From a virus (Duplodnaviria > Heunggongvirae > Uroviricota > Caudoviricetes): a stretch of DNA of 33,875 nucleotides. The translations under genes and the position numbers were made by a program. Under the pieces are notes generated by a model. It saw nothing but the letters and a program-made list of their open reading frames with translations. It searched no databases and had not been told where the DNA came from. The stretch lies in IMG/VR virus record IMGVR_UViG_2731957955_000011. One strand, given 5' to 3'. Shown here piece after piece: positions 3,851-33,875 of the stretch; the first letter of the stretch is position 1; the number at the start of each line of letters is the position of its first letter.

Positions 3851-3862
3851 CACGCTACCGCC
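3851..3862 (-). promoter_or_regulatory. ops element (RfaH recruitment site, part of JUMPstart) in the waaQ operon leader
   Basis: Plus strand reads cacgctaccgcc at 3851..3862; the reverse complement GGCGGTAGCGTG is the 12-nt ops consensus on the waaQ coding strand, about 50 nt upstream of the waaQ start. Confidence 0.75.
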
Positions 3863-4213
3863 CCAGGCTCAACAGCTACCTGAATACTGATACCGCACTG
3901 ATATTGACGCGCTAGTGTATCACTTCTTTCGCGGCAATCCGACCCGAATGATTTTTAAGCACATTGTTGATTTTCAATAAAGAAATCAATCAAATAAAAT
4001 CATTAGCAACCATATTCTTTCACTGTTGCTCTGCGATTCCTTCCTGCACGTACAGCAGAAATCAATGAATCGCATAAAAATACAAAAAAAGTATAGATGT
4101 TCAGCAAGAATTGGCGGGTAAATTGCTATTTAAGTCAAAAACGGGAAAAGTAATGGTAAAGCCACAGCTAAATACATAGAATCCCCAGCACATCCATAAG
4201 TCAGCTATTTACT

Positions 4214-22968: not shown

Positions 22969-23011
22969 AAGGCGGCAGTGAGAAGACCGCCATTTCAGGT
23001 TACCCTACCTT

Positions 23012-23095
23012 CCTGCCGGATGCGATTCACCCTACAAATTCAATAAATTGTGAATCAATGCGCAGCCTTGATAAGCGAAGCGTATCAGGCATTTG
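23012..23095. repeat. REP/BIME-like palindromic repeat sequences in the recG-gltS convergent intergenic region
   Basis: tgccggatgcg at 23015..23025 and cgtatcaggca at 23082..23092 are imperfect inverted copies resembling REP half-sites (GCCGGATGCG / GCCTGATACG). Two further GC hairpins flank the region (about 22971..22993 and 23103..23124). Pattern recognition only. Confidence 0.3.
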
Positions 23096-23133
23096 TCTTT
23101 GTTGCGGCGGCACTTCTACCGCCGCTTCATCGG

Positions 23134-26130: not shown

Positions 26131-27840
26131 ATGAAATTTATTGGGAAGCTGCTTCTCTACATTCTCATCGCTCTGTTAGTGGTGATCGCTGGCCTCTATT
26201 TTCTTCTGCAAACCCGCTGGGGAGCAGAACATATCAGCGCATGGGTTTCCGAGAATAGCGACTATCATCTGGCCTTCGGGGCGATGGATCACCGTTTTTC
26301 CGCGCCATCTCATATCGTGCTGGAGAACGTCACGTTTGGCCGTGATGGCCAGCCCGCGACCCTGGTGGCAAAAAGTGTCGACATTGCGCTAAGCAGTCGG
26401 CAACTGACCGAACCACGCCATGTCGATACCATCCTGCTGGAAAACGGGACGCTGAATCTCACCGACCAGACCGCGCCGCTACCGTTCAAAGCCGATCGTC
26501 TGCAACTGCGTGATATGGCGTTTAATAGCCCGAATAGCGAATGGAAACTGAGCGCGCAGCGGGTAAATGGCGGCGTAGTTCCGTGGTCACCAAAAGCCGG
26601 TAAAGTGCTGGGTACGAAGGCGCAGATTCAGTTTAGTGCCGGATCGCTTTCGCTCAATGATGTTCCTGCCACCAATGTACTGATTGAAGGCAGTATTGAT
26701 AACGATCGCGTTACGCTGACTAACCTGGGTGCCGACATCGCCCGCGGGACATTAACCGGAAACGCGCAGCGTAACGCCGACGGCAGCTGGCAAGTGGAAA
26801 ACCTGCGCATGGCGGATATACGTCTACAAAGCGAAAAATCGCTAACCGACTTCTTTGCGCCATTACGCTCTGTCCCGTCGTTGCAGATTGGTCGCCTGGA
26901 AGTGATCGATGCTCGTTTGCAAGGTCCGGACTGGGCGGTGACCGACCTCGATCTCAGCTTGCGCAACATGACCTTCAGTAAAGATGACTGGCAGACACAG
27001 GAAGGCAAACTGTCGATGAACGCTAGCGAGTTCATTTATGGTTCGCTGCATTTATTTGACCCGATTATAAACGCGGAATTTTCCCCGCAGGGCGTAGCGC
27101 TGCGCCAGTTCACCAGCCGCTGGGAAGGGGGTATGGTCAGAACGTCAGGGAACTGGCTGCGTGACGGGAAAACGTTGATCCTTGATGATGTGGCAATTGC
27201 CGGGCTGGAATATACCTTGCCGAAAAACTGGCAACAGTTGTGGATGGAAACGACACCCGGTTGGTTAAACAGCCTGCAACTGAAGAGATTTAGCGCCAGC
27301 CGCAATCTGATCATTGATATCGACCCTGACTTCCCGTGGCAGCTCACCGCGCTCGATGGTTACGGTGCCAACCTGACGCTGGTTACCGATCATAAATGGG
27401 GCGTCTGGAGTGGCTCGGCGAATCTGAATGCCGCCGCCGCGACATTCAATCGTGTTGATGTTCGTCGCCCGTCGCTGGCGCTGACCGCCAACAGCAGCAC
27501 GGTGAATATCAGCGAACTGAGTGCATTTACTGAAAAAGGCATTCTGGAAGCCACCGCCAGTGTTTCACAAACGCCACAACGTCAGACACATATCAGCCTG
27601 AATGGACGCGGTGTGCCGGTGAATATTTTGCAACAGTGGGGATGGCCTAAATTACCGTTGACTGGCGACGGCAATATTCAGCTTACCGCCAGTGGCGATA
27701 TTCAGGCCAATGTCCCGTTGAAACCTACGGTTAGCGGGCAATTGCATGCCGTGAACGCCGCAAAGCAGCAAGTGACTCAAACCATGAATGCTGGCATCGT
27801 TTCCAGCGGTGAAGTTACATCGACGGAGCCGGTGCGGTAA
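26131..27840 (+). CDS. yicH: AsmA-family protein YicH
   Basis: In-frame ATG at 26131 gives MKFIGKLLLYILIALLVVIAGLYFLLQTRWGAEHISAWVSENSDYHLAFGAMDH... (569 aa) with an N-terminal membrane anchor. Confidence 0.88.
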   Translation: MKFIGKLLLYILIALLVVIAGLYFLLQTRWGAEHISAWVSENSDYHLAFGAMDHRFSAPSHIVLENVTFGRDGQPATLVAKSVDIALSSRQLTEPRHVDTILLENGTLNLTDQTAPLPFKADRLQLRDMAFNSPNSEWKLSAQRVNGGVVPWSPKAGKVLGTKAQIQFSAGSLSLNDVPATNVLIEGSIDNDRVTLTNLGADIARGTLTGNAQRNADGSWQVENLRMADIRLQSEKSLTDFFAPLRSVPSLQIGRLEVIDARLQGPDWAVTDLDLSLRNMTFSKDDWQTQEGKLSMNASEFIYGSLHLFDPIINAEFSPQGVALRQFTSRWEGGMVRTSGNWLRDGKTLILDDVAIAGLEYTLPKNWQQLWMETTPGWLNSLQLKRFSASRNLIIDIDPDFPWQLTALDGYGANLTLVTDHKWGVWSGSANLNAAAATFNRVDVRRPSLALTANSSTVNISELSAFTEKGILEATASVSQTPQRQTHISLNGRGVPVNILQQWGWPKLPLTGDGNIQLTASGDIQANVPLKPTVSGQLHAVNAAKQQVTQTMNAGIVSSGEVTSTEPVR

Positions 27841-31603: not shown

Positions 31604-31858
31604 CTGCTTTTCCTTGATGCTATAGGGGTGCTGAGACCGATAACGCATTTTGTAAACCATCCCTGTGAGAGCGAATATTCCGATATCTGGTTATTAATTT
31701 ATGATTCTTGTTTTATGTGATCGTGGTAGCGTTAATTCCGCTCATATATCATTGTAAAATATGGGTTTTATATGAACTATAATGCTTTCGTGATAATACG
31801 CTGCGTGTATTAGGCGGAAAAAACTGATCTGGGGGATGTAGAAACTCAAGGAAGTAGC

Positions 31859-31864
31859 TATAAT
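31859..31864 (+). promoter_or_regulatory. candidate -10 hexamer (TATAAT) of the selC promoter
   Basis: Perfect tataat 32 nt upstream of the mature tRNA 5' end, followed by a GC-rich discriminator-like sequence; no good -35 seen. Confidence 0.35.
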
Positions 31865-31895
31865 GCGCCCCGCCTCCATGTAGCAATCGAGGCGC

Positions 31896-31990
31896 GGAAG
31901 ATCGTCGTCTCCGGTGAGGCGGCTGGACTTCAAATCCAGTTGGGGCCGCCAGCGGTCCCGGGCAGGTTCGACTCCTGTGATCTTCCGCCA
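31896..31990 (+). tRNA. selC: tRNA-Sec (selenocysteine, anticodon UCA)
   Basis: 95-nt sequence GGAAGATCGTCGTCTCCGGTGAGGCGGCTGGACTTCAAATCCAGTTGGGGCCGCCAGCGGTCCCGGGCAGGTTCGACTCCTGTGATCTTCCGCCA, matching E. coli selC as I recall it; anticodon TCA at 31930..31932; encoded CCA end. Confidence 0.95.
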
Positions 31991-32103
31991 GTTTACCTCT
32001 TCTGAACTCTCCCAATGTCAATAAATCTCTTCTAATCCCTTGTATATCAGTATTTATTTGTATCCTGAGGTCAACCTACTTCACCCCATATCAAGTTTCT
32101 TTT

Positions 32104-32254
32104 GGGGGTACTTTAGGGGGTGTTATTTCCTATTGAAATACAAGCACCCCCATAATAGGAAAAATATGATACATAACAACGGCTTTTAACAATATCTTTG
32201 TTATACAAGGGGTGTATTGGGGGTATCAGGTTAGTTACTGGCAGAAATCCCCCT
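32104..32254. repeat. cluster of G5/C5-containing heptamer repeats plus a 9-bp inverted repeat in the selC-int spacer (candidate integrase or regulator binding sites, attL arm)
   Basis: GGGGGTA at 32104..32110 and 32219..32225; GGGGGTG at 32116..32122; GGGGTGT at 32209..32215; CACCCCC at 32145..32151; TCCCCCT at 32248..32254; tttcctatt (32126..32134) / aataggaaa (32154..32162) perfect inverted repeat. All read directly; function inferred. Confidence 0.4.
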
Positions 32255-32289
32255 CAGGAAGATGAATTCATCAAAAGCCGGAGGATGTC

Positions 32290-33474
32290 ATGGCATTAAC
32301 CGATATCAAAGTGAAAACCGCAAAACCCAAAGACAAACCCTATAAGCTTGCTGATGGCGGCGGTATGTATCTACTGATTAACACTAATGGTTCTAAATAC
32401 TGGCGCATGAAGTACCGCTTTGCTGGTAAAGAAAAGATGCTTTCTATTGGCGTATACCCCGATGTAACGTTAGCCGATGCTCGCGAGAAACGCAGTGAAG
32501 CCAGGAAACTCCTCGCTGCTGGAGGCGATCCAGGGGAGGCAAAAAAGGAAGAAAAAATCGCGCAGCAAATGAGTCTGAAAAATACGTTCGAGGCTATTGC
32601 TCGCGAATGGCACCAGTCAAAAGCTGATCGGTGGTCATTACGCTATCGTGATGAAATCATTGATACCTTTGAAAAAGACATTTTTCCCTACATTGGCAAG
32701 CGCCCTATTGCCGAAATCAAACCAATGGAGTTACTGGAAGCACTACGTAAAATGGAAAAACGTGGAGCTCTGGAGAAAATGCGCAAGGTCCGCCAGCGCT
32801 GTGGTGAGGTGTTCCGCTATGCAATTGTTACTGGCCGGGCAGACTATAACCCAGCCCCCGATCTTGCCAGTGCTTTAGCTACACCGAAAAAAGTACATTT
32901 TCCCTTTCTTACTGCTAATGAACTTCCCCACTTCCTCAACGATCTGGCGGGTTATACCGGAAGTATAATCACTAAGACAGCTACTCAGATCATTATGTTA
33001 ACCGGCGTACGAACACAAGAACTGCGTTTTGCACGCTGGGAAGATATCGATTTTGAGACAAAATTGTGGGAGATCCCGGCAGAAGTAATGAAGATGAAGC
33101 GACCTCATATTGTGCCGCTCTCTGAGCAGGTCATTATGCTATTTAAGCAGCTTGAACCAATCTCAAAACATCATCCCCTAGTCTTTATCGGTAGAAATGA
33201 TCCCCGCAAACCAATTAGTAAGGAAAGCATTAACCAAGTAATTGAATTACTTGGATATAAGGGAAGACTCACAGGGCACGGTTTCAGACACACCATGAGT
33301 ACAATTCTGCATGAACAAGGCTTTAATTCCGCCTGGATTGAAATGCAGTTAGCTCATGTGGATAAAAATTCCATCAGGGGTACCTATAATCATGCCCTGT
33401 ATCTCGATGGCCGCCGTGAAATGATGCAATGGTACGCTGATTACATTGATTCACTCTCCAGCCGGGAAAGTTAA
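32290..33474 (+). CDS. P4-family tyrosine site-specific integrase (tRNA-associated genomic-island integrase)
   Basis: 394-aa ORF MALTDIKVKTAKPKDKPYKLADGGGMYLLINTNGSKYWRMKYRFAGKEKMLSIGVYPDVTLADAREKR... with a P4-Int-like N-terminal arm-binding region and catalytic-core motifs (TGVRTQELRFARWEDID; HGFRHTMSTIL; RGTYNHA). Good ggagga Shine-Dalgarno. Sits 300 bp 3' of selC. Confidence 0.88.
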   Translation: MALTDIKVKTAKPKDKPYKLADGGGMYLLINTNGSKYWRMKYRFAGKEKMLSIGVYPDVTLADAREKRSEARKLLAAGGDPGEAKKEEKIAQQMSLKNTFEAIAREWHQSKADRWSLRYRDEIIDTFEKDIFPYIGKRPIAEIKPMELLEALRKMEKRGALEKMRKVRQRCGEVFRYAIVTGRADYNPAPDLASALATPKKVHFPFLTANELPHFLNDLAGYTGSIITKTATQIIMLTGVRTQELRFARWEDIDFETKLWEIPAEVMKMKRPHIVPLSEQVIMLFKQLEPISKHHPLVFIGRNDPRKPISKESINQVIELLGYKGRLTGHGFRHTMSTILHEQGFNSAWIEMQLAHVDKNSIRGTYNHALYLDGRREMMQWYADYIDSLSSRES

Positions 33475-33577
33475 ATCAGAAATACTTTTCCCTGATATTT
33501 TCCTCAATTAAGTATTTTATCCTCTGGCCTACAAGGCTGGAGGATTTTTGTTATTATATTATTTTTTTTGCGTCTTC

Positions 33578-33875
33578 GGTAATGACTCCAACTTATTGAT
33601 AGTGTTTTATGTTCAGATAATGCCCGATGACTTTGTCATGCAGCTCCACCGATTTTGAGAACGACAGCGACTTCCGTCCCAGTCGTGCCAGGTGCTGCCT
33701 CAGATTCAGGTTATGCCGCTCAATTCGCTGCGTATATCGCTTGCTGATTACGTGCAGCTTTCCCTTCAGGCGGGATTCATACAGCGGCCAGCCATCCGTC
33801 ATCCATATCACCACGTCAAAGGGTGACAGCAGGCTCATAAGACGCCCCAGCGTCGCCATAGTGCGTTCACCGAAT
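33578..33875 (-). mobile_element. IS1 insertion sequence, partial (terminal inverted repeat plus about 300 bp; remainder beyond window end)
   Basis: Starts with the IS1 terminal inverted repeat ggtaatgactccaacttattgatagtgttttatgttcagataatgcccgatgac... and continues as IS1 sequence as I recall it, with insB encoded on the minus strand. Confidence 0.9.
33593..33875 (-). CDS. insB: IS1 transposase InsB, C-terminal part (5' end beyond window)
   Basis: Minus-strand frame ...[93 protein letters not shown], open to the window edge. Confidence 0.88.

Follow-up and report, generated by a model that had tools for sequence, protein, structure and literature searches.

The DNA considered here, a stretch of 33,875 nt referred to as the window, is filed as IMG/VR virus record IMGVR_UViG_2731957955_000011 (Caudoviricetes). 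Near its right end lies selC, a tRNA-Sec gene, followed by an integrase gene (int) and the first part of an IS1 element; the remainder of the window is ordinary backbone reaching from waaO to yicJ. We conclude with high confidence that this region is the left attachment end (attL) of genomic island 3 (GI-3), the 48-kb selC-integrated multidrug-resistance island of the Escherichia coli O104:H4 (ST678) outbreak lineage, which is enteroaggregative and produces Shiga toxin. selC (31896-31990, plus strand, anticodon TCA) is the single tRNA gene reported by ARAGORN for the window, and its match to Rfam RF01852 scores 83.8 bits compared with a gathering score of 47. The gene, into which the island has integrated, is intact with its 3' CCA included and is annotated as tRNA-Sec in an identical RefSeq record. 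Its final 24 nt, TTCGACTCCTGTGATCTTCCGCCA (31967-31990, plus strand), form the attL core, of which an exact second copy, attR, lies beyond the window.

The gene int (32290-33474, plus strand) starts 299 nt past the tRNA end and encodes an intact tyrosine recombinase of 394 aa, identified as an island integrase of the P4/CP4-57 type by Pfam, NCBIfam and PDB matches and by its catalytic motifs. The architecture is complete, with an N-terminal arm-binding domain (DUF4102/Arm-DNA-bind_3, PF13356, 2.8e-30), a central SAM-like domain (Phage_int_M, PF22022, 4.6e-36) and a C-terminal catalytic domain (Phage_integrase, PF00589, 5.5e-28). The NCBIfam model PRK09692 matches at 8.1e-95 with 317.8 bits, which is under the model cutoff of 434 bits, and the PDB matches are CPS-53 and CP4-like integrase domains. 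Motifs with the catalytic residues of tyrosine recombinases were placed by their position in the translation at R241, H330-x-x-R333, H356 and Y366. That the enzyme would recombine the 3' end of the tRNA gene is indirectly supported by the 24-bp sequence repeated exactly at the two ends of the island. The allele is common: the exact protein (WP_001218908.1, UniRef Q93SE7) is found on at least 1000 contigs, and when the best place per record is counted in complete E. coli genomes, 923 records have an int copy of at least 99% identity, 502 one of 90-95% and 396 one of 80-90%.

A terminator-like hairpin with a 12-bp stem and a T-run (33519-33555, plus strand, by consensus match; the hairpin itself spans 33519-33545) lies 3' of int and 22 nt ahead of the IS1 end. 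IS1 follows about 100 bp behind int (33578-33875, minus strand), beginning at 33578 with its terminal inverted repeat GGTAATGACTCCAAC..., and the window contains the first 298 of its 768 bp. The transposase fragment at 33593-33859 on the minus strand matches DDE_Tnp_IS1 at 5.7e-48, in line with an IS1B-family annotation. The element in the reference is 768 bp long with an annotated programmed frameshift, and its two ends are imperfect repeats.

All 33,875 nt of the window correspond without one mismatch to positions 2913022-2946896 of NZ_CP027394.1, the genome of E. coli O104:H4 FDAARGOS_349 from human stool in Germany. In this genome, one exact copy of the 24-nt selC end is present downstream, at 27125-27148 of the segment that we call L002 (NZ_CP027394.1 2993124-2993147), where shuffled sequences give an expectation of 0; identity ends at both edges of the 24-mer. 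From selC to this attR the island measures 48,136 bp. Past attR follow a rhuM pseudogene remnant, setC, yicL and nlpA. A synthetic empty junction, in which selC is joined to the post-attR sequence AAATGCCTCTCCTGACG, is found uninterrupted and at 100% identity in other E. coli, again with setC next, and at least 80% of this query is covered in one place in 2468 of 5426 complete genomes. The guanine-cytosine content is 55.8% for the island, 43.0% for the selC-int region and 51.2% for the backbone in the window. The region thus combines an integrase gene beside a tRNA gene, direct repeats, variable presence and deviant composition, the features by which tRNA-associated genomic islands are recognized. 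The rhuM pseudogene fragment between attR and setC (L002 27227-27388; NZ_CP027394.1 2993226-2993387) also occurs in genomes with an empty selC and may be a remnant of a still older element at this site.

These data bear directly on one competing explanation, namely that selC, int and IS1 are a scar with K-12-like backbone right after IS1 and no island at all. IS elements often mark deletion scars, and the IS1 here has no target duplication. However, every window-identical genome carries 46 kb of foreign DNA after IS1 before an exact attR and setC are reached, which leaves an integrase remnant with a negligible probability. The island is real because IS1 is followed not by backbone but by foreign DNA, 48 kb in all, that ends in an exact 24-bp repeat. 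An earlier note, made from the sequence of the window, had proposed a genomic island boundary at this place, formed by the tRNA-Sec gene, an intact P4-type integrase directly 3' of it and an IS1, in a position where backbone genes follow selC in K-12. It had suggested looking downstream for the 3' end of selC as a direct repeat, and had named backbone straight after IS1 without such a repeat as the finding that would speak for a mere remnant. The proposed boundary has held, and that contrary arrangement is not what the window-identical genomes contain.

As the window ends inside IS1, the cargo was read in window-identical genomes. In the RefSeq annotation of FDAARGOS_349, IS1 is followed by a fragment of a GNAT acetyltransferase gene (81 nt annotated) and by tnpA and tnpR of the Tn21 type, then by a class 1 integron with intI1, dfrA7, qacEdelta1 and a truncated sul1 (annotated as dihydropteroate synthase). 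Next come IS26-bounded segments with blaTEM-1 and with repA/repC-sul2-strA-strB, the mer operon, tetR/tetA and a CP4-like backbone. The resistance region is of the Tn21/Tn1721/Tn6029 type, and IS1 is its left boundary. Among the island backbone proteins, Pfam recognizes YagK/YfjJ, a zinc-ribbon protein, a 68-aa AlpA-family regulator, a YeeP-like GTPase, DUF932, DUF5983 and DUF4942; RefSeq adds Ag43, an antirestriction protein, a JAB/RadC protein and a YeeU/CbtA toxin-antitoxin pair. Several genes of the island backbone are pseudogenes. In the window-identical genome of 2009EL-2071 (NC_018661.1, L003 26463-41091) the integron is inverted relative to FDAARGOS_349, and mer and tetA are missing from the stretch viewed.

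This content is that of a published island. Grad et al. 2013 (mBio, PMC3551546) described GI-3 'by selC' with sul1, sul2, dhfr7, qacEdelta1, blaTEM, a mercury operon, tetA, antigen 43 and yeeV-yeeU, and found it only in clade 1 O104:H4 and not in 55989 or historical O104:H4 isolates. Roy Chowdhury et al. 2015 (PLoS One, PMC4326458) placed a complex resistance locus (CRL)/RD1 in GI3, adjacent to selC, and described an In2 integron that lies in a hybrid of Tn21 and Tn1721 together with Tn6029C/D, the whole having been shaped by IS26. Genome, selC position and gene list are the same as here, with no difference inside the window. The island is therefore already known and its cargo is not new. The earlier note had regarded the DNA behind the boundary as a likely place for novel content, anything from virulence loci to defence systems, and had cited the enterocyte effacement locus (LEE), SHI-2 and PAI-I as selC-associated islands. 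The expectation of novel cargo was not upheld. PADLOC reported no convincing defence system among ten island backbone proteins, the weak matches being those of the YeeP-like GTPase to LeoBC (1.7e-08) and LeoA (9.5e-05) and of the AlpA-like protein to three models (E-values from 6e-4 to 9e-4). Type III secretion, aerobactin iuc and hly or fimbrial genes are not annotated between attL and attR. Identity with LEE, SHI-2 or PAI-I (PAI I536) was rejected on gene content and on the divergence of the LEE integrase, which is 89.6% identical in nucleotide sequence. Two island proteins of 200 and 290 aa (L002 13354-13956 and 16544-17416, outside the window) gave no match in Pfam or PADLOC; they are encoded between AlpA and the YeeP-like GTPase and adjoin a stretch of pseudogenes only.

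The P4/CP4-57 type of the integrase would also be compatible with a P4-like satellite prophage at selC. From attL to attR, however, the annotation has no phage genes, be it for capsid, primase, replication or anything else, and we rejected a prophage on this ground; hardly any probability remains for it. Slightly more room, yet still very little, is left for a different lineage in which the same int-IS1 junction leads into other cargo, such as the glycosyltransferase/ABC-transporter island of the WCHEC020031 type, the AGI-3-like island of BL21 or the LEE. In 233 complete genomes the int-IS1 junction is identical and comes with the same integrase protein, and what lies to the right of IS1 varies among those viewed; integrases at least 99% identical are as widespread as described above. 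Against such a lineage, 100.0% identity over the backbone in the window's final 25 kb is confined to the O104:H4-lineage genomes listed, with the next best at or below 99.3%, and this adds to the complete match with FDAARGOS_349 and to the distance of the LEE integrase.

The IS1 behind int offers some insight into how the resistance genes reached the island. A simple IS1 insertion leaves a target-site duplication of about 9 bp. The sequences flanking IS1 here, TGCGTCTTC on the left and CAGCGCGCT on the right, contain no such duplication, which rules out a simple insertion and points to later recombination or deletion. The duplication was missing from every IS1 copy examined. To the right of IS1, WCHEC020031 has glycosyltransferase and ABC-transporter genes, Z1322HEC0002 has blaTEM-1, a sul2-strAB segment and mer, and O104:H4 has a 98-bp fragment of the GNAT gene ybjA, then the inverted repeat of Tn21 (GGGGTCGTCTCAGAAAACGG...) and tnpA. 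Between the IS1 copies of O104:H4 and WCHEC020031 there is no difference in the first 447 bp, but 19 positions differ in 448-765. The O104:H4 copy equals the plasmid IS1 of pMR0617ndm, which lies beside a cat remnant, ybjA and Tn21, except at position 106. At this position it has the allele of the chromosomal island copies, and in 567-765 it has the alleles of plasmid copies of the Tn2670 type. Compared with the plasmid, O104:H4 also lacks 785 bp beside IS1, in which the cat remnant and the greater part of ybjA lie. Across the copies compared (window 33578-33875, L001 21979-22746, L004 21979-22746, L009 15979-16746 and 19993-20760, L010 15979-16746), the int-proximal IS1 is hence a mosaic, with breakpoints that vary by lineage.

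A bovine isolate, PF9285, has the order selC, int, IS1#1, IS5 fragments with a glycosyltransferase gene, IS1#2, catA1, ybjA and Tn21. Both IS1 copies are in the same orientation and flank about 3.2 kb, with a start-to-start distance of 4,014 bp. At position 106, IS1#1 carries the allele of the island, but its bases in 567-765 are divergent; IS1#2 is of the plasmid type. This arrangement looks like the predicted precursor, because recombination between two such IS1 copies would yield exactly the O104:H4 IS1. Taken together, the comparisons suggest that a selC island of greater age gained its resistance module from a Tn2670-type element, the two having recombined through their IS1 copies. Among the matches listed, the O104:H4 junction of IS1, ybjA fragment and Tn21 is found in one piece in O104:H4-lineage genomes and in isolate 19AR0254, of unstated lineage; no plasmid among them has the exact junction of IS1 and ybjA fragment in one piece, and all need two pieces. 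A term search of PMC4326458 gave no mention of IS1, Tn2670 or ybjA. The mosaic nature of the int-proximal IS1, with the Tn2670-type origin that it implies, may thus be a minor point not described before, which refines a known island and does not make a new kind of element.

From the anatomy of the locus and from what is known of P4/CP4-57-type integrases, we infer the following course of events. An older CP4-like island would have come first, comprising int, YagK/YfjJ, a zinc-ribbon gene, AlpA, the YeeP-like GTPase, Ag43, antirestriction, RadC/JAB, YeeU-CbtA and DUF4942. Its integrase would have recombined the circular form (attP) with the 3' 24 nt of selC (attB), an integration that would have regenerated an intact tRNA-Sec gene and placed a direct repeat of the 24-nt core at each end. 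This older island would already have had an IS1 just behind int. The determinant acquired later would have been IS1-catA1-ybjA::Tn21 as in Tn2670, together with In2 (dfrA7), Tn6029 (blaTEM-1, sul2, strAB), mer and Tn1721 tetA; it would have entered by homologous recombination between IS1 copies, after which a deletion adjacent to IS1 would have removed the 785 bp. An island-encoded directionality factor of the AlpA type and the integrase could in principle reverse the integration reaction and excise the island, in which case the circular attP junction would read ...CTCATA-TTCGACTCCTGTGATCTTCCGCCA-GTTTACCTC....

The 299-nt spacer between selC and int contains features that could serve such a reaction. 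A cluster of (T/A)(T/A)GGGGGT motifs at 32083-32224, to which no strand is assigned, provides candidate arm-type integrase sites. The hexamer GGGGGT/ACCCCC is rare: the 33.9-kb window has six, four of which fall in the spacer (at 32104, 32116, 32146 and 32219), and two of the eight in the 50 kb of L002 sit just inside attR (27052 and 27064). The tandem pairs 32104/32116 near attL and 27052/27064, the latter 60-75 bp before attR, both have a 12-bp spacing, and the int-proximal pair of GGGG motifs is conserved in the attL region of the O157:H7 LEE. We regard these clusters as putative arm-type binding sites. A repeat search over 31850-33620 returned only the tRNA acceptor stem and the GGGGG-containing arms and no further structure. 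A sigma-70 scan for an int promoter gave nothing convincing on the plus strand; its two matches are both on the minus strand and are fewer than in shuffled sequences.

A further competing explanation concerns mobility. The island could be a fixed, immobile relic in which int is intact only through recent acquisition and all variation stems from IS26, IS1 and transposon events. We consider this a serious possibility, if somewhat short of probable. It would agree with the annotation of the island, in which conjugation and mobilisation genes are missing and several backbone genes are pseudogenes, and with the fact that the variation reported or observed is internal (some 18 kb deleted, the integron inverted, mer and tet lost) and not a precise loss of the island. 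Against a relic, all parts for excision are intact, namely int, AlpA, two perfect 24-bp cores and the motif clusters beside both, and related selC islands have been reported to excise. A further proposal, which we put forward tentatively and consider rather unlikely as a whole, is that the IS1 next to int is a recurrent docking site, at which homologous recombination between IS1 copies has added plasmid r-determinant modules of the Tn2670, Tn21 and Tn6029 types, repeatedly and independently, to still-excisable selC islands in E. coli lineages that are unrelated (O104:H4, PF9285 and Z1322HEC0002). If so, the multidrug-resistance island could still excise and move as a unit into any selC, because int, AlpA, the 24-bp cores and the putative arm sites are intact. 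The IS1-IS1 route may also explain resistance regions at selC in several lineages.

Our assignment to GI-3, with a resistance module joined through IS1 to an island that may still be mobile, has to be set against several observations that weigh the other way. In PMC4326458, GI-3 is called no more than 'potentially mobile', a term based on its analogy to other islands at selC. No conjugation, mobilisation, type IV secretion or relaxase genes are present in the RefSeq annotation of the 48 kb, so that the island does not qualify as an integrative conjugative element, which would have its own type IV secretion system and relaxase, and any transfer would therefore need help in trans. The assignment of the arm sites depends entirely on motif clustering, and the left side of the proposed IS1 crossover depends on a single-nucleotide polymorphism at position 106. 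In addition, published isolates carry an internal deletion of about 18 kb (PMC3551546). Window-identical genomes differ in their cargo, which therefore varies within the lineage, and the variant of the source strain may differ from that of FDAARGOS_349. For a genome scan the useful outcome is negative, in that nothing new lies behind the boundary, and the joining route by IS1-IS1 recombination is the one modest addition.

Two further observations concern the backbone in the window. The spacer between recG and gltS (22969-23133) is about 165-175 bp long here and in PF9285 and Z1322HEC0002, and WCHEC020031, O157:H7 F8797 and BL21 have an extra hypothetical open reading frame of 867 bp in it, which runs into the 3' end of recG, a minor polymorphism of the backbone. 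At its expected and known position, some 50 nt upstream of rfaQ where the lipopolysaccharide core operon starts, there is a JUMPstart RNA element (RF01707, 55.2 bits, 3851-3889, minus strand).

GI-3 can finally be compared with other elements at selC and elsewhere. The O157:H7 LEE uses the same site, has its int about 200-300 bp on and an IS directly behind it, and carries a CbtA/DUF5983/DUF957/DUF4942 module. Besides its divergent integrase, the LEE differs in an attL spacer that lacks 104 bp between two GGGG runs, and in its cargo, a type III secretion system, whereas GI-3 has no annotated type III secretion genes. The selC island of BL21 is closer: its integrase is 99.6% identical, its attL spacer is nearly identical, and it has the same right-end module and rhuM remnant. 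In contrast to GI-3, it has no IS1 behind int, and its cargo consists of LacI/MFS/GH31 carbohydrate genes and an autotransporter without resistance genes. With its sugar uptake and autotransporter genes, this island presumably resembles AGI-3 of the avian pathogenic E. coli strain BEN2908. Judged from their sequences, these selC islands share a frame with int at the left and a module from CbtA to DUF4942, with the rhuM remnant past attR in BL21 and O104:H4, and differ in cargo. With Tn2670, the r-determinant of R100 (IS1-catA1-ybjA::Tn21), GI-3 has in common the right two thirds of IS1, identical to the plasmid copy, and the order of ybjA fragment, Tn21 inverted repeat and tnpA; it differs in the 785-bp deletion, the island allele at IS1 position 106 and its chromosomal location inside a tRNA island. 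By concept, GI-3 is akin to the Shigella resistance locus (SRL) pathogenicity island at serX of Shigella flexneri, which is likewise integrated at a tRNA gene, has a P4-type integrase and carries multidrug-resistance cargo (PMC7545054), and which differs in its tRNA site and in its resistance genes.

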